From assembly GCA_965178125.1 (NCBI GenBank), contig OZ237754.1, positions 310,001 through 374,000 of the forward strand: a stretch of 64,000 bases of DNA, given 5' to 3'. Of the stretch, positions 15,156 through 41,963 are shown piece after piece (positions within the stretch are counted from its first letter, which is position 1; each line of letters opens with the position of its first letter). The stretch is from Bilabrum cf. latius. Its lineage: Eukaryota. Under the pieces are notes generated by a model. It worked only from the letters and a program-made list of their open reading frames with translations, ran no database searches and was not told the DNA's origin. Made by a program: the position numbers and the translations under genes.

Positions 15156-16078
15156 TTATTCCCCCGTCACGATGCCCCTCACGAATGCCTCGATGCCCTC
15201 CGGCCCATCGGAGCGCAGGGACCGGATCACGGCGCTTCCCATCACAGCCCCGTCCGCAAACCCGCTCACGCTCTTGATGTGCTCGTGCGTGCTGAGCCCG
15301 AAGCCCACTGCCAGCGGCAAATCCTCCCCTACTGCCTTCCTCACCCTGCCCATGAATGCTCCCAGGCCGGGGGGCAGCTCCGTGCGAGCGCCCGTCACTC
15401 CCGTCACAGACACGCAGTAGATGTATCCCTTGGCGCACTTGGCGACGGTTGCCAGTCTGGCATCCGTGCTGGTGGGCGCAACGAGGGGCACGTAGGCGAG
15501 CGAGTGCTTGTCGCACGCCTCGAGGAATTTCGTGGCTTCCTCGGGCGGCACGTCGACTACGATCATCCCGTCGATGCCAGCTACGAGCAAAAGCGAGTTC
15601 GAGTACGGTGAAGCTATACATAAATCCATGCTGCAAGGTGATTGTAAATGGCACCGACGCTGCTCTTCTCACCCTTTGCGCAATCCTCTCCAAGCTGGGC
15701 CTCGCCGTAACGCAGGAATGGATTCGCATACCCCATCAAAATCACTGGCTTGGTCAAACCTTTTGCCCTGGCCTCTTCCACGTACTTCAGGGTCTTTTTC
15801 AATGTGATTCCATTCTTCAGAGCGACCATGTTCGCTGCTTGGATCGTCCCGCCATCCGCCAGTGGATCAGAGAAAGGCATTCCAAGCTCAATCACATCTG
15901 CCCCGCCCTTCTCCATTCCAAGGAGCACATCTACAGTGCTGTCTAGCTTAGGGAAGCCTGCTGTCACGTACGGAATGAACGCTGTTCGTCCTTCCGCCTT
16001 GCAGTCAGCGAACTACTTCAGTACCCTCGCAGATCCTGCGAGAGCATCCTATCCTGCGGCAGCACCTGATCCTGCCAT
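15156..16078 (-). CDS. trpA: Tryptophan synthase alpha subunit (stand-alone)
   Basis: join(16078-15673,15580-15156) with a 92-nt GTGAG...TAG intron. Motifs AFIPYVTAGFP, IELGMPFSDPLADGGTIQ, LMGYANP, VVDVPPEE, YCVSVTGVTG, AVGFGLS, DGAVMGSA. Two TAGs near the N-terminus; ends TAA followed by TGA. Confidence 0.95.
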
Positions 16079-21219: not shown

Positions 21220-24057
21220 TCACGTGCTGCGCTCTCCCTCCCCGCCAAGATTTGCGCCATCATCCGCACCAACACTGCCAGCGGCCCCGCTGCTGCCATC
21301 CTCGGCTGCACCTTTGCGGGCACTGCTGCACCTCGCGAGGGCGGCCGTGATGGAGGACGCCCCCTTTGCCTGCCTGCTCGATCCAAAGAGGGCCACATTG
21401 AGCACTTTGGCAACCCTTGAGCCGAACTGCACCGCGCGCTTTGGCAAAAGCGCGCTTTCGCCTAGCCCGAGCTGGACTGCGACCAAACGCAGCACCCGCT
21501 TGTCTCCCTGACCCCGCTCTAAGCCGGGGTCCAATATCCTATCCACAGGGATGCGTGACAGCGCACCCAGCACGCCCTCGTCCAGGAATGGCAGCCGGAG
21601 CTCCCTCCCGTGGTCGCTTACAATCCTGTCGTCTCTGCCGAGGTTTCGGGCCCACAGCCGATCCACATCCATAGATAGCTCTGACGCGACCGCGGCCCAG
21701 CCCCCTCTCGACACCGCAGTTGCATGCCTGCCGTACCCGCCGCACAGCTCGTCTGCCCCCAGGCCAGAGAACACAACGCGAGCCGAAGACACAAATCGAC
21801 TATCTTCTATCGCATCGCGCACAGCAGCCACGGGACATGATTCAACAAGCCCGGCCGATGAGAGGTCTGCAGCAGTTGCCAGTCTCCCTGTTCCCGAGGC
21901 GGCGTGCCATATCGCCATACCAAGAGACAGGTCCATGTTGGTACATCTTGGCCACAATAAGGTCGCCACGTGAAGCATGGTCTTCTTGACGTCGTCAGGC
22001 GAAACGTTAACAAGGACGAGTCGCCACTCTCTCTCCGGGCACGACCGTCGGAGCTGCATCCACGATTGCAGTGCGGTTTTCCTGTCCGGAGACTGATGCT
22101 CTGGATAGTCAAAGCAGGCCGACAAAAGGTCAATTGGCTCCCCCGGTGGAAGGAAATCGTGTGCAAGCCTGGCAACAATGGTGCAATCGAGGCCCCCGCT
22201 AAACAGGACGGCCAAGCGAGAGGGTGCAAGTGATCTTGCAGCTGCTGCAGCAACAGTTTCCGACTCTGCACTGGCCGCGATGGGTGCTGCAGCTCTTTCC
22301 AAAGGTGACGCGCCTCCCAGATCTGGGGATGCGGCGACAGAGTCTCTCGGCAGCTCTGGCCCAATGGGCGGCCTAGCCACTTCGGAAGCGGAGGGCTCCG
22401 TGTGACTAGGGTCGGGGCAGTGTGTGACGCGCCGCTGCACAGCCAGTCGAAGGGCTACCATCGTTGCGTCTCTAGCACGGATCCAATCACCGGCCAACGC
22501 CAGTGAGTCGTTCTCACAAGCACCTGGGCTTGGGCTGCTGGTTTCACAAGCACCTGGGCCTGTACTGCTGGCTTCACTGCTACGGCCAGACGATACCGTT
22601 GCTACATCGGTTGTGCTCACAGATGCTGGTTTGAGTGCTCTGCCTTTGCTCACTGCGGCTCCCCCCTTACCCCTTTGGTCAAGTCTCACAATGTCTGGTC
22701 TTGCCACGGATGCACGTGTAGGTCGCCACAGCGGCAGCCCGCGCCGCAGATCGACACAACAGAAGCCAAGCACAACAGCCGCGGTCTCCCTACCTACATC
22801 TGATACGCTTGAATGCTTCTGGTCCTCGAGTGACAGTGGCAATGCAACGTCCCCGGGGTCTGTCACCAAGCCAGGTTCTCTGCTTGCTGCAGGACCCAGT
22901 GCTTTACCCCAATCGATGCTCATGGCTCTGACTGAGAGCGGTGGCTTGCAAATGCTGCTGTCTCCGAGCGCAGCCCAGCAATGACCAGCGCCAGCACCAT
23001 TACCATCACCAGCACCAGCACCAGCACCAGCACCAGCACCAGCACCAGCACCAGCACCAGCACCAGCACCAGCACCAGCACCAGCACCAGCACCAGCACC
23101 AGCACCAGCACCAGCACCAGCACCAGCACCAGCACCAGCACCAGCACCAGCACCAGCACCAGCACCATCACAAGCACCTGCACCTGCACCTGCACCTGCA
23201 CCTGCACCTGCACCTGCATCTGCACCTGCACCTGCACCTGCACCCGCACCAGCATCAGCACCAGCACCAGCACCAGCACCAGCACCAGCCCACCCGCAAG
23301 CCATCACCCAACCAGCAGGGATCTCCTGCCAACGCCCCCCGCATGCCACCACATCCAAGTTGAGGTCTCTTGCATCTGTCATGAGTGGTTCTTCGATCAA
23401 TGCTGCTGTTGGTACAACATCCCCTGCCCCGCCGAGGCCCCCACATACAGAGCTTGCTGCCGGGGCGGGGTGCTGGACGCTGCTTGACTGGCGGGTTATC
23501 CTCGCGATTCCTGACAGCTCTGGAAGAACGACGCTAGATACTATGACTGGTTCGTGTGTCTCGTGACCGGCGCGTGGCAATCGAAGCAGCAGGCTCCTTC
23601 TGCCAACTGCACCCCGCCCAAACACAACGCTGCTGGTAGCGGTGTCTACCACGCAGGCTGCCCAGGGACCAATAACCGAGTCTAGAGCCTGGGCGATAGC
23701 CAAGTGCGACTCTTTCTGTGATGCTGCCTCCGTAAGGCGCAGTTCAACGCTGTCTCGAATCGCAGCAGTATCACTTGTTTCGGTTCCGAGGCCCCAGGCT
23801 TCGCCGTTCCAGGCAATTCCACCGCTACGCGACATGAACCCCAGAGGCTATGCGGATATCACCCCGGTCTTGGAACGTTGCATGGAGAGCACTGATGCTA
23901 TCATAACTACTCGGGTACCATTCGCAAGCTTCCATTCACGAAAAGACATGTTGTCCGGTCCTCGCGAGCGCAACGCGCGGCGGGCCTGCTCGCATACGTT
24001 TTTGACCAAATCGTCTGGGCAGTCCTGAGGAATAATCAATAAAGTCACTCCGCACAT
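21220..24057 (-). CDS. ASNSD1: Asparagine synthetase domain-containing protein 1 (Ntn domain plus Asn synthase domain)
   Basis: Starts MCG at 24057, with LRSRGPD. One TAG (23848-23850) joins it to WNGEAWG, GRRSLL, AVLFSGGLDC, SPDRKTA, GLGADELCGGYGRH, RNLGRDDR, RLPFLDE, GDKRVLR, PKRAVQFGSR. TGA stop. Confidence 0.9.
22985..23289. repeat. Hexanucleotide microsatellite (GCACCA)n/(GCACCT)n encoding poly-(Gly-Ala) inside ASNSD1
   Basis: About 50 tandem 6-mers seen directly; in frame on the minus strand. Confidence 0.95.
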
Positions 24058-27720: not shown

Positions 27721-30036
27721 TCACGAACTGCCGCTGCCAGAAGCTGCCTCGCTGGTTCCGTCATACGCGTGCACCACTCTCGCGAACACGTCCTCCAGCG
27801 TCACTTGCCCCACGCCCCAGTCCGTGATACCACCCTCCCTAGCATTGTCGTGCATCAGCCTAAACATGTTCGACAAGGGCATGCCACCCGTGGGGACCAG
27901 GAAGCTCGCATACCCTTGGTAGTCTTGGTCGATGCTAGCTGTAGGGAACAGCCTAGCGATCAGACCAACCGCTCGCTCCCTCCCCAGCGCCTTCCCACCT
28001 CGCTCGGGAACCCCTGCAGCCGCTGCACCTGCAACAACTGCGCCGCCAGAGTCGCGCTCGTAGTTCACAAAGAGTCTGTAGCCTTGTCCGAATCGGTTGC
28101 GCAGCGATTGTGGGGTGCCAATCACGCGCACCCGCCCATCGCAGACTATAGCAATCCTGTCGCTCAGCAGCTCGCACTCGTCCATCGAGTGCGACGTCAG
28201 CACCATGCTTCTAGGCCTGCCAGTGTGGGACGGGAGGCGTTTGGCCCGCTCAATGACTCTCCACAGGCGCCGCCTAGAGGCGAGATCCAGCCCCGCAGTG
28301 GGCTCGTCCAGGTAGGAAAGCACCGACCTGCCCGTGAGGCTGATGGCGGTGGAGAGCCGACGGCGCATGCCTCCGGACAGCTGGCCCGCTGCGCGTTTGC
28401 GCACAGCAGCAAGGTCAACTGCCTCCAACTGGTTGTCAACTTCCACCTGCAGTCCCTCAGGCTCCACGCCCTTGAGCCTGGCATAGAAAAACAGGTGATC
28501 CTCTACGGACAGGTCGTCCCACAGCACGCTGTGCTACGGGCAAAGCCCAAGGGACAGGTGAACGCCTGTCGGGTCGCGATCGACGTGGTGGCCACCCACC
28601 CACGCATCGCCAGCAGTGGCTGGGATTGTCGCCGAGATGCAAGCAAACGAGGTGGACTTTCCGCACCCATTAGGCCCGACCATTCCCAGCACCTCCCCAG
28701 GATTCAAGGCGTAGTTCATATCCTGCACCGCCACTTTCAGGCCCATTGGAGTGTCGAATTCTTTGCGAAGAGCCCTGACAATCAGAGGTGCGGGCGCGGC
28801 GGCAGCGTGCCGATCCAGCGCACTGCCCGTCAGGCCGTCAAGGCCGGCTCGGACAGGTGCGGTGCCATCGTCCCCAAAACCCAACAGCTTCGCGATCCGT
28901 CTCCTCTCCTCTGTGACCATCGGGTCCTCTCCCCTCGCCTGCTCGAACGCATGCTGCTCGCTGCCAGCGTGGGGAAACAATCCAAGGAGTGGACGCCTGT
29001 CGTTCACCCGCAGCGGAGCAGAGTCACCGAGACACTACGCAGGTGACGGGGGCACCAGGCCACCCTATGAGGAGGCCAGGCCTGGCATGCCCCCCAGACC
29101 CACGCTGCCAACTGAGCCATCGTTGGTGTGGCTATTGGACAGCAGAGATTTTCTCATGTCGTCGGCAGAGTCCGAGTTTCCGGCTTCCTTCTCACCCTTG
29201 GAGCCTCCCGCAGAATTTCTTGCTCCGGAAGAGCGGCAGCTGCAGGTGCAATTGTTCTCCAGCCATCCGTGAGGCAAGCACCAGCGAAAGCAGCAGCAGG
29301 GGTGGGACGGCACCTGGTGCTCACCCGGGAGCACCTGTTCCAGGTAGACAGCCGCAGCCATGTAAATCACTGCATCGATGAATAACCATGCAATCACCCA
29401 GCGCATCTCTGTGCCGGCTGCGGTCGCCTGCGCAAAGTTGTCAAGGCAGTTTCCCTTAAAGATACACGCAAAGTTCATCAGGTAGATCCCCCTGCAGAGC
29501 GCAAAAATCGGCATAACATGCAGCCACGAGGGCATCCGAGCTCCGTACGAGAACGGCGGCACGTTGCCGTAGATTCCGTCTGCCAGAACTGTTCCTATCA
29601 GCGTGCCGAGCAATGCAACAGCATATCCAACGATGGTTGCCACGCGCCTGGAGCCCAGCAGTGATGCCACAAAGGCTGCCAGCGAGGTCAGCGCCATGCC
29701 CCAGCCGACAAAGAATAGCAGAAGCAGCAGCGGACTTGTGGAGAGGAAGAAACTGAAACGCAGGATCGCTCCGACGGCCCAGAAGAACCCCACCACACAG
29801 AGGTACATGCCCATGTTCAGCAGGTAGTTCGTCCCGAAGTACTCGTAGTCCCGCATGCCCATGGCGCGCTGCAGCTGCAAGAGTCCCGTCTCGCGCTCCA
29901 GAACGGTCGTGAAGCTAAATAGAGGGAGCTGCAGGGTCAGCCCGATGGGGTACAGGAACGCGCCGAACACCTGTACCAGGCTCTCCAGGTTCTGCACGAT
30001 ACGCTCCGGCATGGTTGCAACCACCTTGACGGACAA
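27721..30036 (-). CDS. ABCA: ABCA transporter, 3' part (TMD2 plus NBD2), separated from the 5' part by a mobile element
   Basis: One frame with TAGs at 29065, 29035 and 28534. VLERETGL...AMGM, Walker A GPNGCGKST, Q-loop LGLCP(TAG)HSVLW, LSGGMRRRLS, YLDEPTAGLD, LTSHSMDECE, TLEDVF. TGA 27721-27723. Confidence 0.92.
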
Positions 30037-30189
30037 AAACTGACATTGATTTGTACGTTACATCGAATCAGTTCTAGAACCTCCGGTTAGGGTTGCTAGA
30101 AAATGCGAGGGCGTGCTGGGCCCCGGCTCCTCGGGCGGTTGACCACCCGTGGCGCCACAAGGGGACCCGGCTGCTGGTGCAGCCTGCGC
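30035..30189. repeat. Split direct repeat B2 (155 bp)
   Basis: Identical by eye to 30915-31069. Confidence 0.95.
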
Positions 30190-30744
30190 GCCTGACGCGG
30201 GTAAGCAAAGTGCCTACCCACCGGAGGTATCATTCAATCATACAATGTAAGCAGATGCGCTCGAAGATCTAAACACCCAGCCAGTGGCTGGGAAAAGTCA
30301 CCCGAGCTCGGTGCCGCCCTCTCAGTGAGGTGACGACCCCTACATCCAAATCCCTCAGAGTGTCTGCATGGCCTGGACTATAAAGACCGAAAATGTTCCG
30401 GAAGAAAACTATCCATGCCTGGGTGCCGCCCTCTCGTTGAGATGACGACCCCGTCTTCTGCTGACTGTCCCGCGGTGTGATTTGTTGGCTGAGGATGCCG
30501 ACAAACTCACGCGCGATCCTGGGTGTCGCCCTTCGGTGTCCGGTGGCGACCCCTGTACCTCTGGGTGTTGAGTCATGATCCCTGCCCTGCAAGATATGCG
30601 CTATCGTTGCGCCAAATCGCAGGCCCTGGGCTGTCCTCGCGCTCCAAATTGCTGTGGTACGCGTGGGCTCTTTGCCCCATCATTCAGGGACTTGAGTCAT
30701 GACACTCCTCTCTGCACTTCCTCTACACTTTGCGGGTGGGCGGG

Positions 30745-30842
30745 AAAACTTTTGCAAGCTGACTCAGAACTACACTACATTGTAGTACGTGTCTTCTTGA
30801 GCACTGCCGAGATCAGTATCTTCGGCGTACCCTCGGGAAGAT
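30745..30842. repeat. Split direct repeat A2 (98 bp)
   Basis: Identical by eye to 36760-36857. Confidence 0.95.
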
Positions 30843-30914
30843 GAGTCGGCCTTCACGCAAATCAATCCCAGTTTCTACAGTTCCGGTCTTACTGATTGTA
30901 ACCCCAGACCTGCT

Positions 30915-31069
30915 AAAAACTGACATTGATTTGTACGTTACATCGAATCAGTTCTAGAACCTCCGGTTAGGGTTGCTAGAAAATGCGAGGGCGTGCTGGG
31001 CCCCGGCTCCTCGGGCGGTTGACCACCCGTGGCGCCACAAGGGGACCCGGCTGCTGGTGCAGCCTGCGC
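30915..31069. repeat. Split direct repeat B1 (155 bp)
   Basis: Identical by eye to 30035-30189 (aaaaactgacattg...gcagcctgcgc). Confidence 0.95.
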
Positions 31070-31574
31070 CGTACTGACCCGCAGATTTGGCCACCTGTGG
31101 CCACTGCGGCTTGCCGCCCTACGCATACTGACCTGTGGGTCACATTAATCCGCTCCTTGGATATAGTCGCCACGATGGCTGCTGTCCGCTTTGCTTGCCA
31201 CTAGTGGTAGTCATCTGTCGGTGGTGACCACCGTGGAGCCACTTGCATCGACTGTTGTGTTGAACTGTCAGGTTATGGTGGCTGATCTGCAGCATTCACC
31301 GTACCACCGATGAGCCTAGTCGTTGATCGCAACCAGAGATGTCAATTATATACGAAATCCTCGCCGAGCTTAATACTGGTGCCTAAGATGCATTCAAGTA
31401 CACAGGTTGCTGCGGGAGTGATCATCGCTTTCGTCGTTGTTAGTGCTATCCATTCGACAGGACCTCCCAGTCTAGCTTACAAATGGTGCATATGGTGCTG
31501 CTCATTTTGTCCTGTCGTTGCTAGTGCTGTTCATCCGGAACTTACAAAACTCTGTTGTCGAGCTGCGTCCCTGC

Positions 31575-32161
31575 AAATGGTGCAATTGCTCACACAGGCT
31601 GCCTTGGGGATGGGCATCTCCTCCTTGGCAGCTAGTGCTGTTACTATGACAAGACCTCCTGGTCGAGCTGTTCAATGGTGTACATGGTGCAATTGCTCAC
31701 ACAGGCTGCCTTGGGGGTGGTCATCTCCTCCTTGGCAGCTAGTGCTGTCGCTATGACAAGACCTCCTGGTCGAGCTGTTCAATGGTGTACATGGTGCAAT
31801 TGCTCACACAGGCTGCCTTGGGGGTTGTCATCTCCTCCTTGGCAGCTAGTGCTGTCGCTATGACAAGACCTTCTGGTCGAGCTGTTCAATGGTGTACATG
31901 GTGCAATTGCTCACACAGGCTGCCTTGGGGATGGTCATCTCCTCCTTGGCAGCTAGTGCTGTCGCTATGACAAGACCTCCTGGTCGAGCTGTCCAATGGT
32001 GCACATGGTGCAATTGCTCACACAGGCTGCCTTGGGGGTGGTCATCTCCTCCTTGGCGGCTAGTGCTGTCGCTATGACAAGACCTTCTGGTCGAGCTGTT
32101 TCATGGTGCACATGGTGCAATTGCTCACACAGGCTGCCTTGGGGGTGGTCATCTCCTCCTT
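31575..32161. repeat. 107-bp tandem repeat array, block 1 (~5.5 units; more diverged copies at ~31430-31575)
   Basis: atggtgcaattgctcacacaggctgcc... recurs every 107 nt (ORF starts at 31675, 31782, 31889, 31996, 32103). Confidence 0.95.
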
Positions 32162-32163
32162 TG

Positions 32164-32978
32164 CATGTGGTCGTAGTCCCGAGAAATCCACGACGATCCT
32201 GGCCTATTCACTTGGTACTATGCGTCGCTGCATGCCCACGCCGGGGCTGAGCTTCCAAGCGTACTTCCGGACCAGCAAGGCTCTCGGCATATCTGATGTT
32301 GCTGGTGTCGATGTAACTCGAATGAATCCTGCCTCAACCTGCTTGCGAATCTCAGTAAACAGGGCTGATTGCGTTGAGGTACCTTCGTGCCAGTCGGCGT
32401 CCCCACCGTCTCGTGGAGCCTTGATCGCTGCGTCAGGCTCGAGGTACCAGTGGAAAGGCGCGCCATACTTGCGTAAGACGTGCAACACCTCCGCCACCGG
32501 ACAACACTGCGTGGTGCAGATTGAGAATGTAGCTGGCTGCATCCAATACAGTTTGTCCCCACTGTGCACTTGCATGCTCCTCAGTGCGCTGCTCTGCGAG
32601 TTCATGCCGCTACGTTGCTCCACAATAGCCCTCTCGGTGTGCTCTGCTCTGGCTCCCTGACGGGCTACGAGAGTTCGCTCCTGGGTGGCCTGCTTTACAG
32701 CGGACGACTAATTCCTCGAAGCCTCCTCCCGGGTCCCCCCAAGGCTAACTCTAGCATCAAGGGATGGTCCCGTGGATTTGACAGGCAGTATGAGTCCCCC
32801 TTCGCCGTGACCTAGTCGGACCTCTCCTTCTAGTGCGAACGTCGGAGGCACTCTGCCGCCTTGCTGCTGCTACGTCGGTGCTGATGTTCGTGCTGCTTCC
32901 TACTACCGCGGCTGCCCTGTGACCTGGCCCTTCTGCGCCTCGCGCTGGGGGTGCTGTCGTCGCGCCGCTAGTAGATGT
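32164..32978 (-). pseudogene. Truncated retroelement pol fragment ending just after the early RT motif
   Basis: About 270 codons open apart from 5 TAGs. VLHVLRKYGAPFHW...SALFTEIRKQVEAGFIRV...LLVRK...E(TAG)ARIVVDFSGL resembles the RT N-terminus (EIxxxxxxGxI; RxxxDxxxLN). No YxDD, RNase H or recombinase follows. Confidence 0.65.
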
Positions 32979-33327
32979 TCTCCTCCTTGGCCGCCAGTGC
33001 TGTCGCTATGACAAGACCTTCTGGTCGAGCTGTTCAATGGTGCATATGGTGCAATTGCTCACACAGGCTGCATTGGGGATGGTCATCTCCTCCTTGGCAG
33101 CTAGTGCTGTCGCTATGACAAGACATCCTGGTCGAGCTGTTTCATGGTGCATATGGTGCAATTGCTCACACAGGCTGCCTTGGGGGTGGTCATCGCCTCC
33201 TTGGCAGCTAGTGCTGTCGCTATGACAAGACCTCCTGGTCGAGCTGTTTCATGGTGCATATGGTGCAATTGCTCACACAGGCTGCCTTGGGGGTGGTCAT
33301 CTCCTCCTTGGCGGCTAGTGATGTCGC
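32979..33327. repeat. 107-bp tandem repeat array, block 2 (~3.2 units)
   Basis: Same unit as block 1 (ORF starts at 33037, 33144, 33251). Confidence 0.95.
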
Positions 33328-33360
33328 GGTTGAGCATCGTAACACAACCTTAAGTTATCC

Positions 33361-36300
33361 AATGGACGACTCGCAGCAACCCACCCAGGCTCGCCAAGCT
33401 GCCCACAGCAGCAAAGGCGGCCAGTGGCAGGCGCATTCAGGCGCCATCACAGACAAAGGCAAGCGGACGTCAAATGGACGACGCGCAGCAACCCACCCAG
33501 GCTCGCCAAGCTGCCCACAGCAGCAAAGGCGGCCAGTGGCAGGCGCATCAAGGCGCCATCACAGACAAAAGCAAGCGGACGTCAAATGGACGACGCGCAG
33601 CAACCCACCCAGGCTCGCCAAGCTGCCCACAGCAGCGAAGGCGGCCAGTGGCAGGCGCATCAAGGCGCCATCACAGACAAAGGCAAGCGGACGTCAAATG
33701 GACGACGCGCAGCAACCCACCCAGGCTCGCCAAGCTGCCCACAGCAGCAAAGGCGGCCAGTGGCAGGCGCATCAAGGCGCCATCACAGACAAAGGCAAGC
33801 GGACGTCAAATGGACGACGCGCAGCAACCCACCCAGGCTCGCCAAGCTGCCCACAGCAGCAAGGTGGCCAGTGGCAGGCGCATCAAGGCGCCATCACAGA
33901 CAAAGGCAAGCGGACGTCAAATGGACGATGCGCAGCAACCCACCCAGGCTCGCCAAGCTGCGCACAGCAGCGAAGGCGTCCAGTGGCAGGCGCATCAAGG
34001 CGCCATCACAGACAAAGGCAAGCGGACGTCAAATGGACGACGCGCAGCAACCCACCCAGGCTCGCCAAGCTGCGCACAGCAGCAAAGGCGGCCAGTGGCA
34101 GGCGCAGTCAGGCGCCATCACAGACAAAGGCAAGCGGACGTCAAATGGACGACGCGCAGCAACCCACCCAGGCTCGCCAAGCTGCGCACAGCAGCGAAGG
34201 CGTCCAGTGGCAGGCGCATTCAGGCGCCATCACAGACAAAGGCAAGCGGACGTCAAATGGACGATGCGCAGCAACCCACCCAGGCTCGCCAAGCTGCCCA
34301 CAGCAGCAAAGGTGGCCAGTGGCAGGCGCAGTCAGGCGCCATCACAGACAAAGGCAAGCGGACGTCATATGGACGACGCGCAGCAACCCACCCAGGCTCG
34401 CCAAGCTGCGCACAGCAGCAAAGGTGGCCAATGGCAGACGCTTCAAGGCGCCATCACAGACAAAGGCAAGCGGACGTCAAATGGACGACGCGCAGCAACC
34501 CACCCAGGCTCGCCAAGCTGCGCACAGCAGCAAAGGCGGTCTGTGGCAGGCGCAGTCAGGCGCCATCACAGACAAAGGCAAGCGGACGTCAAATGGACGA
34601 CGCGCAGCAACCCACCCAGGCTCGCCAAGCTGCCCACAGCAGCAAAGGCGTCCAGTGGCAGGCGCATTCAGGCGCCATCACAGACAAAGGCAAGCGGACG
34701 TCAAATGGACGATGCGCAGCAACCCACCCAGGCTCGCCAAGCTGCCCACAGCAGCAAAGGTGGCCAGTGGCAGGCGCAGTCAGGCGCCATCACAGACAAA
34801 GGCAAGCGGACGTCAAATGGACGACGCGCAGCAACCCACCCAGACTCGCCAAGCTGCGCACAGCAGCAAGGTGGCCAATGGCAGACGCTTCAAGGCGCCA
34901 TCACAGACAAAGGCAAGCGGACGTCAAATGGACGACGCGCAGCAACCCACCCAGGCTCGCCAAGCTGCCCACAGCAGCAAAGGCGGCCAGTGGCAGGCGC
35001 ATCAAGGCGCCATCATAGACAAAGGCAAGCGGACGCCAAATGGACGACGCGCAGCAACCCACCCAGGCTCGCCAAGCTGCCCACAGCAGCAAAGGCGGCC
35101 AATGGCAGGCGCATCAAGGCGCCATCATTGACAAAGGCAAGCGGACGTCAAATGGACGACGCGCAGCAACCCACCCAGGCTCGCCAAGCTGCGCACAGCA
35201 GCAAAGGCGTCCAGTGGCAGGCGCAGTCAGGCGCCATCCCAAACTAAGGCAAGCGGACGTCAAATGGACGACGCGCAGCAACCCACCCAGGCTCGCCAAG
35301 CTGCCCACAGCAGCAAAGGCGGCCAGTGGCAGGCGCATCAAGGCGCCATCACAGACAAAGGCAAGCGGACGTCAAATGGACGACGCGCAGCAACCCACCC
35401 AGGCTCGCCAAGCTGCCCACAGCAGCAAGGCGGCCAGCGGCAGGCGCATCAAGGCGCCATCACAGACAAAGGCAAGCGGACGCCAAATGGACAACGCGCA
35501 GCAACCCACCCAGGCTCGCCAAGCTGCCCACAGCAGCAAAGGCGGCCAGTGGCAGGCGCATCAAGGCGCCATCATAGACAAAGGCAAGCGGACGTCAAAT
35601 GGACGACGCGCAGCAACCCACCCAGGCTCGCCAAGCTGCCCACAGCAGCAAAGGCGGCCAGTGGCAGGCGCATCAAGGCGCCATCACAGACAAAGGCAAG
35701 CGGACGTCAAATGGACGACGCGCAGCAACCCACCCAGGCTCGCCAAGCTGCCCACAGCAGCAAAGGTGGCCAGTGGCAGGCGCAGTCAGGCGCCATCACA
35801 GACAAAGGCAAGCGGACGTCAAGTGGACGACGCGCAGCAACCCACCCAGGCTCGCCAAGCTGCCCACAGCAGCAAGGCGGCCAGTGGCAGGCGCATCAAG
35901 GCGCCATCACAGACAAAGGCAAGCGGACGTCAAATGGACGACGCGCAGCAACCCACCCAGGCTCGCCAAGCTGCCCACAGCAGCAAGGTGGCCAGTGGCA
36001 GGCGCATCAAGGCGCCATCACAGACAAAGGCAAGCGGACGTCAAATGGACGACGCGCAGCAACCCACCCAGGCTCGCCAAGCTGCCCACAGCAGCAAAGG
36101 CGGCCAGTGGCAGGCGCATCAAGGCGCCATCAAAGAAGAAACAAGCGGACGTCAAATGGACGACGCGCAGCAACCCACCCAGGCTCGCCAAGCTGCCCAC
36201 AGCAGCAAGGCGGCCAGCGGCAGGCGCATCAAGGCGCCATCACAGACAAAAGCAAGCGGACGTCAAATGGACAACGCGCAGCAACCCACCCAGGCTCGCC

Positions 36301-36447
36301 AAGCTGCCCACAGCAGCAAAGGCGGCCAGTGGCAGGCGCATCAAGGCGCCATCACAGACAAAGGCAAGCGGACGTCAAATGGACGACGCGCAGCAACCCA
36401 CCCAGGCTCGCCAAGCTGCCCACAGCAGCAAGGTGGCCAGTGGCAGG
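33361..36447. repeat. 111-112-bp tandem repeat array (~27-28 units)
   Basis: aatggacgacgcgcagcaacccacccaggctcgccaagctg...ggcaagcggacgtca repeated head to tail with few substitutions and no unique spacers. Confidence 0.97.
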
Positions 36448-36759
36448 CCCCGTTTGCGACACAATGTTAATAATAATCTTGATTTACGATTCACTAGCGG
36501 CCTTGCTATGGTTTTTGGGATGCAATACAAGCATAAGTCGAGTTGCGCAGTGTTGTGCCTTGACGTGCCGTGTGCGTTATGAAGCAGCGCCGGGTGAAAT
36601 GCACTCGCAGCAGACCTTTGGCAGCAACTATGCAATAAGTGCATATACCAGCGTGCGTTTGACATGGGTTATGTTTACTTTTTCCTTATAGGGATCAACC
36701 TGAGACGAACACATCCCGATTGCCCTTGGAGCCAGCCGATAGGCCTCTCGAAAACTTTT

Positions 36760-36857
36760 AAAACTTTTGCAAGCTGACTCAGAACTACACTACATTGTAG
36801 TACGTGTCTTCTTGAGCACTGCCGAGATCAGTATCTTCGGCGTACCCTCGGGAAGAT
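36760..36857. repeat. Split direct repeat A1 (98 bp)
   Basis: Identical by eye to 30745-30842 (aaaacttttgcaagctgac...ccctcgggaagat). Confidence 0.95.
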
Positions 36858-39800
36858 CGAGAGCGGTAAGGTTTCCGCCTGGGTACGGGATCGGAGTGGG
36901 TGCCGGGTGGAACCCAGTGCCGCGCTTGACGCCAGCCTACTTCTCCAGCGCAGCCGTGAGCAACTCGTGCAGTGCCACTCGTGCAGCCTCTGGCTGCACT
37001 GCCTGGTCGCGGACGAACTTCGGCATGCCGTGGAACCCAATGCGGGTGAAATTGTTGGGACGGTGGTACTTGGTGATCTGCTCATCGTTCACAGCCAGTG
37101 TCCAGCTCGCCCTGACGACCTTGTCGGAAGCCTGTAGCTCATCGATTTCCACAGTGCCATCCGGCGTGACGTAGGCGGGGCACTGGAAGGCCTGGTCGCA
37201 GGGCGGCTTGTTGTCTAGATGTATTAGCGAGGCGTTGTTCAGCACATTGAGGTCAACCATGAGCTCGCGCTGCATGGCCCGGGGACTCTCCCGCATCAGA
37301 AAGTACGGCACGGACACGTTGGTGCCGTTGCTCATCCTCCACGTAGTCTGAGGAATCTAGCCCAGAAATCCCGTGCCGTTGCCGTACTGGTCCCGCGTCC
37401 CGACGCTCTGGGCCAGATTGGATCCGGGCCCACCCGCTACGCTGATCAAGAAGAACTCAAGCCCGTCCACCTGTTGCGACCTGTTGCCCGGTGTGAGATG
37501 CCTGTGGTGGTGCTGATGCCCCCCACTGTAGTCATCATTCGTCATGTAATAGTCGTCATCTCTCATGTCGTCATCGTCTCCGTAGTCATCGTTGTCGAAA
37601 GAAGGAGCGGGCGAGGGGAACGGGCTTGCAGTTGGGGTCGCTTGCGGCCCGAATGCGGCTGCATTACCGCCTGATTCGCTGTACAATTTCTGTTCTACGC
37701 TTGGACTAAGCACCAAGATGCTGCCATCTTCCAGGTATAGCCACGGGGCGGATTCCGAATCAGAGGCTGCCTGCATTCCGACTTTTCCAGCCTCAGTAGT
37801 ATCCACGAAATCCACGAACGACTCATCACCCCAGGCTGACTGGCCGGCGCCCTCAGAGTAGTCGCTAGCAGTCTCCCACTCGGATGACTCGCCGAACCCG
37901 TGCTCCCATTCTGCCGCGAGCAGGTTCTGGTTCAGCGGGCTTAGCACGCTGGGCGCCAGCTTGCTCTGGGTGGCTCCGAATTCAGCCTTGACGATCACCT
38001 GCAGCAGCGCCAGCAGTCCCATCACGATAAGCGGCGTAATGACCTGACAGGCACACAGGCATTGCTGCCGGCCGATCAAAGTGAGGTACTTGATAGCCAG
38101 GGCTCGACAGCCGTATGAACGCACTGCGTTATCTCCCTTGGTAGCGGCATCTCGGTGCTTCGAGCCGGACATGATATCATCTTGTGAGTCGCCAGCGCCA
38201 GACATCGGCCCTTCCGAACCCAAGCTCTCGGTTTGAGATACCGCAGACGCCGATCCGGCTCCGAGCAAGGAGTCACCCAACTCGCTGTCATCCCTCTGCC
38301 TGTTGGGCTCGCCCGCTGCATCCACCGCTGCATCTGCTCGTCGCATCACCTGCAGGAACACCTCCTCCAGGGAACACATGCTCACGCCCCACTCGCGCAC
38401 TGCGCCGTGCAAGCTACCAGACTAGGCGTCTAGCTTCCCTGCAGGCAATGCAGCGGCAGCCCTAGACTGCGTCGAGGCGGTGGTGCTGGTGTCACCTTCG
38501 CTCCAGGTCTTTGTCTCTTCTCCAGAGGCGATGGATCCACCCCTAGGTCCGTTCTGAATCGCCGGAGCCCCCAACCTGCTGGTACGCCCTGCATCACCCT
38601 CTTCGTCCGTCTGCAGCTCAGTTTCAACCCAGCGCAGCAGCAGGGGCAACTCTTCAACACAACTGAACGGCACAACGAGGGAAACATTGCCGGCGTCTAG
38701 CTCTGCTACCTTCGCGGCGGCCAAGCGCTGCTGCACCGCGGCAGCTACGAGCGGGGCAGCGCTCGGCGTCGTGCTCATGGTAATGCGATAGCCGGAGCCC
38801 TCTCTTTGCTTGAGACTGAGGGCATTGCCTACTGCCCACAGCCTTCCGTGCGCCATGATCAGCACCCGATCACTGAGAGTTTCGGCCTCTAGAAGATCGT
38901 GAGAGGTAAGAATGACGCAGCGGCCGCGCTTGAGGCGCTGCAGCAAGCGCCACACGTCTCTCTTGTTGACAGGGTCAAGCCCTGCAGAGCACTCATCCGC
39001 GATCAGCACAGCCGGGTCGCCAATGCAGGCGATGGCGAGGGAGAGGCGACGCTTCATGCCCCCGCTGTAGTTGCCAGCCGGACGGTCGGCAGCACTCGTG
39101 AGGGACACCTCAGCCAGGCGCTTCTCCACCTCGCGCTCCACGTCCTCAGTGCTTCCCTTGACGCCCTTAATCCGGGCAAATATCCACATGTGCTCACGTG
39201 CCGTGAGCTCAGGCCACAGAATGTCGTGCTGCTGGCAGACGCCGAGCTACTTGCGGATATCGTCGAGGTGGTCCTCCACGTCCATCCCTGCTACCTCTGC
39301 CCTGCCTGTTGTGGGGAGGTAGAGCCCCAGCAGGATGTGAAGCAGAGATGACTTCCCCGCTCCATTGGCCCCTGCTAGAGCCACGCATTCGCCCTTGCGC
39401 GCAAGGAAAGACACTCCTTGCACTGCATGCACGTCACCACCACCACCACCAGCTCCTCCACGCTTAGAGGTCGACGAAACCTGCCTCTCGCCTTCATCTC
39501 CTCCGCCAGATCCACCCGTACCGCACCCCATCCACAGCCAGCTTCCAAGCCTGCCGCAGAGCGAGCACACGTCGTACTTCCTGTACACCTTGGTGAGCGC
39601 CAATACTCTCACAGCAACATCATGGGAGCCGCTTGCGCCGCCCAGCTCCGACCCGCCCTCCGTTGGCACGACCCACGCCTCCTCGGCTGCTTCGTCCACG
39701 CCCGGGTCACGCAGTGCCTCCACCTCCAGCTCCTCCCTCCGCTCGCGCCACCCCGCCGCTGCTCGGCCGGTGATGAGCTGCAACTCATCTCCTGTGGTCC

Positions 39801-41963
39801 CTGCGTTGATGCTTGAGGCTGACAAGAGTCCAACCGCATCCCCAGAAGCCGGCACAGCTGCAGGCAACAGCGAGGCGGGCCCGGCACGGCCCTTGCCTAG
39901 CACAGAGTCGCCGGTCGGCGCCCTGGATCGCCTGGTTGCGCGAGCCTTGGAAGATCGCCGCTTGTAATCAGCACGAGCGCGCTCAAGCGCCACGCTTGGA
40001 TCGTCTTCAGCGCAAAAACACGTTGCCGCGCGGCCGCACGATGAGGTTTGCTTTCTGCCGCAGCACCGCCCCTGCCACCCCACCCCAACGCAGCAGCAGG
40101 GGTGCTGCGGAGAACCGTGCTGCCCAGGCATGATGCTGTCAAGATAAAGGGCCAGAGACGCAAACAGGACCATGTCGCCCAGCATGAGCCATATGCTCTC
40201 GCTGGGGGGCGGGTTGTTGATGTGGAAGCCGAAAACGTTCAGCTCCCTGGACTTGTGCAGGTCGGACCAGTGGAACCCTGGGCCAGGGATGACCTTTCCT
40301 GCCCTTGCATCGATGGTGCTAGTGGCCATCTGCGCGATATCGAAGAAGCTCTTGGAAAAATTGAAGGCAGGGTACAGCTGCATCACGTACCGGATGAGCT
40401 TGATCCACGTCTTGATTGGGTGCATCCACAGGCAGTCGATGAGCCCCCCGTACCCCGCGCTAAGGATGCCCTGGAACACGAAGGACAGGAGCACGGCAGC
40501 CAGCCCGACCGTCTGTGCCAGCTTGGCCGAGTCCACGAGGGTGGAGAGCAGGAACGCCAGGGAGACCTGAGCCATCCCGAAGATGACAAACATAACAAAG
40601 TTGGCGCCGAAGCTGGACCTAGAAAAGTACTCGAAGCCCGCCGCGTACCCCGATGCAATCAGCACGAGCGATGTCAGTGCGCAGTAGGCCAGCCCCACGA
40701 ATGCCCACGATCCCCAGAATGCCGCGTTCCGCATGCCCATGGTCCTCATACCCAGCCGCAGCCTAGCCTCCTTCTCCCCGACAATCTCGACCAGCAGCAC
40801 GTAGAAAATGATGAGCGCGGGGAGGATGTACCACTGGCCACCCTGCTGCGCCACCACATTGAATGCGTGGATTCTCGGCTTTGGCTTAGGAAAGTGCCTC
40901 CACGAGAGGTCGATGGCTGCCTCTCGCTGCACCGTGCCGCTGTTCGAGGGGTCCCCCGCCACGGCCAGCTGTGCGATGTCTAGAGCCCTCTTCAGCTCTA
41001 GCGTGTGTGCAGACTCAAAGAAGGGGTATCGGGTCAGGCTGATGTTGTAGTAGATCATGTAGGTATCCAGCGGCCGCTCCAGCCAGAGGTACTCGCCTAG
41101 AAACAGCACTACCTGCGAGTTGAGTTGGAAGAGGAGCAGGGAGCGCAGAGAGAATGACAGATGCAATGCACGTGTTAGATATGACGATAGGCAAGGAAGG
41201 AAGCCGTGGGCATTATAATCGAAAGGAGCGGCCCAAATGGTGCGAGCATCATGCGCCAACTCACGTTCTGGGTCCGGTTGGGCCGGCTCAGCATGTACTC
41301 AGTCACAGTGCGGTTGTCGCGCATGAAGTCGCACGGAAGGCAGGGAACGCCCAACCCACCAGGTGAAAAGCCACTGGGGATCGCGAGCCGTAGCGGGCCT
41401 TCGCTTGGGTTGAGCTGCTTCCCGGTTTCCTGGACGTTGCTCGAGGAGCCGCTGCGGGGATCCCCCAGGATCCGGCGCGTTAGCTCCATCGCCGTCTGGC
41501 GCGGCTCGGTGGATTCCATGAGCTCGCATTTCGGCCAACTGCCATTCACTTGTGGTGCAGTAGCATTGCACCAGGACCACGGGTCCGTTTGGGATAGCAC
41601 GCCAGGGACTTGCTGTGGTGCAGTGTCGCTCAACAGGAACCCAGCGAGGGCGTCGCTATCCATCAGGGCGCGAACCCCAGGCGTAGCTGGCGCGTACACA
41701 AGGGTCTCGCATTCGCTTAAATGGGCTCCAATTGTACACTCTGGAAGCTGACCAACCTCAGATGCTGCTGGGTACGGCGTCTCCGAGTTCAGCAGCACGT
41801 CTGACAGCGCCTGAAAGCCCACTAAAAGTATTGTCACGACAACCGGGGAAAGGAGGAGCGAGCACGACTGCCTCCAATTTCGTACCTGCAATATCCAATT
41901 CTTGTATAGAAGAACGCCCAGCTACCTGCAGCAGGAGGATCCCTCCAGTGACACGTCACCCAT
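36856..41963 (-). CDS. ABCA: ABCA transporter, 5' part (TMD1, NBD1, second extracellular region)
   Basis: ATG 41963, R(TAG)LGVLLYKNW, intron 41264-41113, IVGEKEARLR..MRTMGM, GANGAGKSS, LGVCQQHDILW, YSGGMKRRLS, DECSAGLD, LTSHDLLEAE, SLEEVF. Five TAGs. Reconstructed full gene is about 2420 aa. Confidence 0.92.

Follow-up and report, generated by a model that had tools for sequence, protein, structure and literature searches.

Results

The insert and its split direct repeats

In this work, we analysed a 64-kb stretch of Bilabrum cf. latius DNA (GenBank assembly GCA_965178125.1, contig OZ237754.1, positions 310,001 to 374,000 of the forward strand), hereafter the window, in which a gene for an ABCA-type full transporter contains an insert of about 6.8 kb with the features of a split-direct-repeat mobile element. 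The gene runs on the minus strand from 41298 to 27724, and the element has the same orientation. Repeat finding and self-BLAST clearly showed that two different sequences of the insert are duplicated exactly, with 100% identity between the copies: A, of 98 nt, is found at 36760-36857 (A1) and 30745-30842 (A2), and B, of 155 nt, at 30915-31069 (B1) and 30035-30189 (B2). No further copies of A or B were detected by these means within the window. All four copies are on the minus strand, and in this direction the order is A1 (36857-36760), interior, B1, A2, B2, such that A1 serves as the 5′ repeat whose outer end abuts the ABCA coding sequence, and B2 as the 3′ terminal repeat. An original prediction, made from the sequence alone, had proposed exact 98-bp and 155-bp duplications in the order A1...B1-A2-B2 on the minus strand, and both the identity and the order were reproduced here. 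It had also assumed a contiguous B1A2B2, which proved incorrect: B1 and A2 are separated by a 72-bp spacer (y, 30843-30914, minus strand), and A2 and B2 by a 555-bp spacer (x, 30190-30744, minus strand). The 3′ block is thus arranged as B1-72 bp-A2-555 bp-B2, its y-A2-x-B2 unit being 880 bp long.

According to local alignments compared with shuffled controls, both spacers are confined to the 3′ block. Neither x nor y gave an alignment score above the shuffled maximum with the satellites, with the flanks, or with the interior segments adjoining B1 (int1) and A1 (int2); y thus shows no similarity to the flanks or to the interior. Within x, at 30292-30560, there are three degenerate repeats (repeat family D7) spaced by about 112 bp, a period like that of the large satellite of the interior, without sequence similarity to that satellite. 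The first and the third of them bear short inverted repeats, GTCACC...GGTGAC and GTCGCC...GGCGAC. Repeat finding revealed no inverted pairs of 40 nt or more.

Two other explanations of y were tried and rejected. A relic of a tRNA primer was dropped: no tRNA was found, and the Rfam matches were sub-threshold noise only. A host exon was ruled out as well: y is an open frame of 24 codons, yet in other contigs the sequence runs from y into non-ABCA sequence.

The host gene and the insertion site

The upstream half of the transporter (TMD1-NBD1-ECD2; 36859-41298, minus strand) runs to the element start, and the homology of the downstream half (TMD2-NBD2; 27724-30033, minus strand) begins right at the element end. 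More precisely, the homology reaches ...GGNLTAL at 36859 and restarts with SVKVV at 30033, thereby adjoining the outer ends of A1 and B2. The orthologues P0154 and P0155, one of them the Cafeteria protein mentioned below, are continuous across this point. When the insert is removed with one ambiguous base, the two halves join in frame as L-(E/V)-S, where the orthologues have L-E-A-S or L-D-A-S; both halves are free of TAA and TGA. Since the orthologues are continuous across the site and removal of the insert restores the frame, we conclude that the element lies in a coding exon of the ABCA gene, and that it was probably inserted recently. This interruption had escaped the original prediction. 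Its statement that a target-site duplication is lacking is borne out: no duplication of 2-10 bp flanks the insert, and the frame rejoins with at most one ambiguous base.

The insert was also considered as an intron, after the manner of introner-like (intron-generating) elements, which leave the host mRNA through splice sites at or in their ends. An acceptor-like CAG lies 5 nt inside B2 and would need a phase-0 donor, for which all the candidates are poor; no strong in-frame GT...AG pair was seen by eye at the element ends, and this possibility has no support yet.

The in-frame stops of the ABCA gene are TAG in all seven cases (7/7), and reading TAG as glutamine gives two long frames. One of these codons falls on the invariant Q-loop glutamine, which is Q in 5/5 orthologues. 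The ABCA frame ends with TGA, and TAA is never in frame in the seven Pfam-supported frames of the region. The seven in-frame TAGs, the one at the Q-loop glutamine and the frames opened by reading TAG as Gln thus show that TAG is a sense codon in this organism, most likely for glutamine. A literature search gave no report of a TAG-sense code in stramenopiles.

The best named ABCA orthologue is a Cafeteria roenbergensis protein with 44% identity; the host is related to Cafeteria but is not Cafeteria itself. Pfam matches in the surrounding frames (WD40, TFIIS, enkurin) indicate a eukaryotic nuclear region.

Satellite arrays and the pol remnant in the interior

Inward from A1, the interior begins with int2 (36449-36759, minus strand), a unique leader between A1 and the first satellite array, which has no second copy in the window and no Pfam match. 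Next to it lies an array of a 112-bp unit (33361-36448; 27.6 copies by Tandem Repeats Finder), in which 27 units have a mean pairwise identity of 95.5%, with 5 of the 351 pairs identical. A 107-bp unit, detected by the same program, forms two arrays, an upstream one of 3.3 copies (32979-33327) and a downstream one of 5.5 copies (31577-32165), which are 94% identical to each other and are separated by a unique middle segment (32162-32978, minus strand). The interior ends with int1 (31070-31576, minus strand), which consists of degenerate 107-bp units (family D4) and of about 80 bp beside B1 that are common to sibling elements; the alignment score of int1 with the 107-bp satellite is 54, the maximum for shuffled sequences being 31. 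In total, the arrays occupy 4.03 kb and are present in the window only in this element.

The middle segment is bracketed by 14 nt of the 107-bp unit, at 32152-32165 and 32979-32992: the downstream array stops at phase 14 of the unit, and the upstream one begins at phase 0. This bracketing suggests either that the array received an insertion or that a template switch took place at a microhomology. On the plus strand, each of the three frames stays free of stops for 1.4-1.9 kb over the 112-bp array (33212-36691), the unit being T-poor and lacking stop triplets. The only Pfam match in these frames is weak (E 0.0049), and we take them as an effect of base composition and not as a gene.

The 3′ part of the middle segment (32162-32569, minus strand) turned out to be a remnant of pol located upstream of the reverse transcriptase (RT) core. 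The standard-code frames of the interior had no Pfam match. When the minus-strand frame of the middle segment was used as a query in a word-indexed search, one protein was retrieved, P0001, which has 369 aa, derives from a 1861-nt contig and ends after the RT domain; its Pfam RVT_1 score is 27.9 bits against a cut-off of 29.6. With TAG read as Gln, the remnant is identical to residues 1-136 of P0001 at 100 of 136 positions (74%). The remnant has one in-frame TAG inside and is open only if TAG stands for a residue, thus indicating that it is read with the code of its host. The match stops at the RT domain-1 motif, right where the 107-bp array starts and 16 residues short of the RVT_1 match of P0001, such that the catalytic core is missing. 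The remnant lies between A1 and B1 and shares the strand of the repeats, in agreement with the direction that an A1...B1A2B2 arrangement predicts. Of the interior that had been predicted, about 4 kb of tandem repeats and an RT stub, the former agrees with the measured 4.03 kb of 107- and 112-bp satellites; the latter is real as a pol fragment with 74% identity to P0001, but it comprises only an N-terminal segment of 136 codons before the RT core.

The relationships of P0001 were studied by an exhaustive HMMER search of 1.84 billion representatives, which gave 478 proteins at E≤0.001 and 2 at E≤1e-30. Among the best 90 of the 150 listed, which were covered by a Pfam scan, RVT_1 was found in 86, RT_RNaseH in 8 and a Dam-type methyltransferase in 6, where it stands after RT/RNase H; rve, protease and endonuclease were found in none (0/90). 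The succession RT-RNase H-methyltransferase is given as the DIRS/PAT architecture in PMC4157794. As the relatives include carriers of a Dam methyltransferase and none with rve, the kinship of the remnant points to the DIRS order, within which these relatives do not separate Ngaro from PAT or VIPER.

We also considered that the insert might have originated outside the DIRS order, either as a derivative of a long terminal repeat (LTR) element or another retroelement, or as a segmental duplication in satellite-rich DNA that picked up a pol fragment by chance. This could explain why no recombinase was met in 57 scanned frames, it would agree with the position of P0001 just below the RVT_1 cut-off, and it draws on the fact that the DIRS label comes through the domains of distant relatives (23-41% identity). 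Nevertheless, we regard such an origin as very improbable: the insert starts with A on its 5′ side and ends with B, two unlike sequences that are therefore not LTRs, there is no target-site duplication, the best 90 relatives of P0001 are devoid of rve and protease, and in other contigs B stops sharply against unrelated flanks.

Related sequences in contigs of public runs

Parts of the locus are present in 12 of the 13 listed runs, which come from six studies. The contigs of four runs (X1, X5, X7 and X8, corresponding to organisms A-D) were compared with positions 29300-31576, a region that stops short of the satellite arrays and of the A1 side, which left no contig able to bridge the insert. 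These contigs were built with k=31 and reach at most 30-32 nt across A or B, and they do not prove which B joins which neighbour. B, x, A, y and int1 are present in 4/4 runs with 99-100% identity, and one contig of X7 (record 19) covers A2 and y and enters B1 by 32 nt.

At the outer end of B (30035/30036), the runs X1 and X8 revealed two more flanks, unrelated to each other, one of them occurring in both runs. Given these unrelated flanks, the outer end of B, and hence of B2 in our copy, is a true mobile terminus. The siblings also vary inside. In one X1 contig, the 112-bp repeat follows immediately upon the inner end of B, which represents a second satellite-bearing form; contigs of X5, X7 and X8 leave the window sequence at 31148 for a different interior; X5 and X8 contain a variant of x that is about 10% diverged and has a 245-bp deletion. 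The unrelated flanks at B and these interior variants together show that the element belongs to a multi-copy family. Contig depths in X1 (about 110 for the flank, 484 for x, 484 to 1416 for the element contigs) are not a copy number, and give only a hint of several copies.

Beyond y, at 30916, X1 and X8 carry other sequences, which are similar to each other (19 of 30 letters by eye) and share a GCAAAG motif at the end. We interpret them as variants of B from sibling elements, and the junction B|y|A seems to be a feature of the family. As regards A, a contig of X5 continues from A into the ABCA flank of the window itself, and the int2|A junction corresponds to a loose end at 30745 in 4/4 runs. 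No solo A2-x-B2 unit with both flanks was seen in the contigs of the four runs. The flank 29300-29983 is uncovered in X5, X7 and X8, a gap that proves nothing about an empty site or the spread among species.

The main rival explanation concerns the long-range structure. Two family members might stand side by side here, namely a 5.9-kb A-interior-B and an 880-bp y-A-x-B resembling SIRE or a solo AB, with the shorter one either integrated beside the longer, or residing as a tandem or a circle elsewhere and threaded into the locus by the assembler. The junctions seen (flank|B, B|x, x|A, A|y, y|B, B|int1, int2|A and A|flank) can indeed be paired also as flank-B-int1...int2-A-flank plus a cyclic y-B-x-A, and no contig crosses A or B by more than 30-32 nt. 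Such an explanation would further suit the restriction of x and y to the 3′ block and the diverged, deleted variant that x has of its own in X5 and X8; besides, tandem copies are reported for TATE (PMC6681497). We nevertheless consider it unlikely. Since the 6.8 kb separate two parts of a single reading frame that fit together in frame, two events at the same nucleotide would be needed. In addition, the neighbours of y in other contigs are mutually alike and resemble variants of B, which makes B|y|A look like a conserved junction inside the element, and the published split direct repeat itself amounts to a full unit followed by an A-B unit.

Two further observations were made in X1. A 599-nt contig follows the ABCA exon over 29300-29767 and then passes into 131 nt of unrelated sequence, where GCAAAG occurs at the same offset as in the sequences beside y; this break, 267 bp from the first insert, may represent a second, polymorphic insertion of a sibling. 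The degenerate 107-bp units (31428-31576) have summed depths of 15757 and 4400 in X1, where the flank has about 110, and are not raised in X5, X7 and X8; in organism A, the 107-bp unit may be present as an abundant satellite.

Age of the satellite arrays

Between the copies of A and B together there are 0 differences in 253 nt, whereas the 112-bp units are about 4.5% divergent; at a divergence of 4%, the chance of finding 0 differences in 253 nt is about 4e-5. Since the units have diverged and the A and B pairs are identical, the arrays would be older than the last event that made A1=A2 and B1=B2, provided that substitution rates are comparable. It would follow that the element was already filled with satellites when it was last copied. 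The contrast between the identical A and B pairs and the diverged satellites fits the insertion of an already satellite-bearing element.

This bears on another scenario, that of decay in place, where a complete autonomous element was inserted, its genes were deleted and satellites expanded locally, such that the satellite form was never mobile. The degenerate 107-bp units grade into int1 beside B1, as would be expected of an array born from the 3′ region of the element, and the 14-nt duplication of the 107-bp register around the middle segment points to a local rearrangement. We find the scenario rather improbable, as it is opposed not only by the contrast between satellites diverged by about 4.5% and the invariant 253 nt of A and B, but also by the freedom of both halves of the host frame from TAA and TGA, and by the second form in X1, in which B is joined directly to the 112-bp repeat.

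Other features of the window

In the tryptophan synthase alpha (TrpA) gene of the window, a 92-nt GT...AG intron (15581-15672, minus strand) was recognized from adjoining Pfam profile positions and from the sequence, thus indicating that the organism has canonical spliceosomal introns. The hexamer ACCAGC is repeated 51 times at 22984-23289, inside an 875-codon frame with an asparagine-synthase domain (21223-23847, minus strand). Its translation would be an Ala-Gly dipeptide repeat of about 100 residues.

Discussion

Taken together, the results make it reasonably probable, in our view, that the insert is a non-autonomous split-direct-repeat element of the DIRS order (Ngaro/PAT/VIPER-like), which was mobilised by its relatives and recently inserted in an exon of the ABCA gene. 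Such an element would have preserved its cis-acting ends, that is, the 5′ A1 and the 3′ block B1-y-A2-x-B2, along with the 136 pol codons that precede the RT core; gag and the genes for RT/RNase H and recombinase would have been lost, with 4 kb of 107- and 112-bp satellites in their place. Transcription would proceed from A1 through B2, and proteins from autonomous relatives would reverse-transcribe the element in trans. The duplicated A and B would serve for template switches, which would render A1 identical to A2 and B1 to B2 in each cycle, and a tyrosine recombinase would then integrate the element without a target-site duplication. The use of this recombinase, the supply of proteins in trans and the route of reverse transcription are what we infer from the structure of the element. 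One may also speculate that the satellites serve to keep the element at full length.

Among the closest known systems are the Ngaro elements of Cafeteria, for which PMC8547959 describes an A1-[ORFs]-B1A2B2 structure (ORFs, open reading frames), solo AB repeats and 5′-deleted variants. The element studied here and Ngaro types 1-4 of Cafeteria burkhardae, as described there, have in common the order A1...B1 A2 B2, a length of about 6-7 kb and the same broad host lineage. The differences, which come from comparing descriptions and not sequences, are that our element lacks gag, RT/RH and recombinase genes, is 59% satellite, has spacers of 72 bp and 555 bp in its 3′ block, and is inserted in a coding exon of a host gene rather than in a virophage. 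As to the hallmarks of Ngaro, the split direct repeats A1=A2 and B1=B2 are found in the proper order and with full identity, though spacers separate B1 from A2 and A2 from B2; there is no target-site duplication; RT/RNase H of the DIRS type without rve is recognized through the relatives of P0001, the remnant itself having no catalytic core; and a tyrosine recombinase was found neither in the frames of the window nor, through a partner, in the metagenome and viral contigs searched, as expected for a non-autonomous copy. Ngaro is distinguished from PAT and DIRS1 by its lack of a methyltransferase, but the corresponding region has been deleted from this copy, and for this reason an assignment to Ngaro as opposed to PAT/VIPER is not possible.

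Split direct repeats also occur in PAT-like elements (PMC4157794), and a likeness to PAT and DIRS1 is provided by the Dam-type methyltransferase in 6 of the best 90 relatives of the remnant RT. In contrast to DIRS1, there are neither inverted terminal repeats nor an internal complementary region here, the number of inverted pairs of at least 40 nt being 0. In Trypanosoma cruzi, SIRE is a non-autonomous derivative of VIPER composed of A2, an exclusive spacer and B2 (PMC6681497), and this composition gives a precedent for the spacer between A2 and B2. The 880-bp y-A2-x-B2 block shows the SIRE layout and has variants of its own in other contigs. However, the SIRE spacer is about 30 bp and not 555 bp, SIRE is highly repeated whereas few copies are suggested here, and our element has in addition a long satellite-filled body ahead of the y-A2-x-B2 block.

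Like our element, LARD and TRIM elements and satellite-carrying transposon derivatives have lost the coding interior and kept the ends, are presumably mobilised in trans, and contain tandem repeats. The element described here differs from LARD/TRIM in its unlike ends, the lack of a target-site duplication and the RT kinship with the DIRS order; the identical terminal repeats and the 4-6 bp target-site duplication typical of LARD/TRIM are both absent, the 5′ end being A and the 3′ end B.

Several points weigh against the interpretation of the insert as a mobilised DIRS-order element. The first group concerns its structure. The spacers inside the 3′ block depart from the published scheme, where B1 and A2, as well as A2 and B2, adjoin; we found no precedent in the literature for separating B1 from A2 by a spacer. 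The y sequence is absent from A1, and hence y is not simply a part of a longer A. The long-range order of the element is known from the assembly only, and no alternative flank at the outer end of A was seen in the contigs of the four runs. The second group relates to the proteins and the relatives. Neither a tyrosine recombinase (PF00589) nor a gag remnant was found among the 57 open frames of the non-satellite parts at Pfam E≤1, and Pfam revealed no tyrosine recombinase in the remaining frames of the window. The DIRS label relies on the domain make-up of relatives of P0001 that are as distant as 23-41% identity. The word-indexed search found no longer relatives of P0001, and in metagenome and viral contigs the P0001-P0003 profile gave no confirmed relative and an exact 42-nt pattern of B gave 0 matches. 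Finally, gene conversion could keep the A and B copies identical, and arrays may gather changes faster than unique DNA; the former would weaken the argument on timing.

Retrotransposons with a tyrosine recombinase are rare, and their described non-autonomous derivatives are few, SIRE being, to our knowledge, the main one. In the derivative reported here, the two repeat pairs have been retained together with the spacers and about 80 bp inward of B1; every gene appears to be dispensable, and 4 kb of satellite is carried instead. It interrupts an otherwise intact ABCA reading frame, which would make the insertion a datable, recent event, and it does so in a protist in which TAG is a sense codon. 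Going further, we put forward as a tentative idea, of low probability at present, that satellites can be the cargo of a tyrosine-recombinase retroelement: a gene-less element copied in trans would seed the 107- and 112-bp repeats at new sites, coding exons included, and, if the host gene survived the insertion, would be taken out of its mRNA as an intron of recent gain. If siblings elsewhere carry the same arrays, the element would offer satellites a way to spread through reverse transcription.

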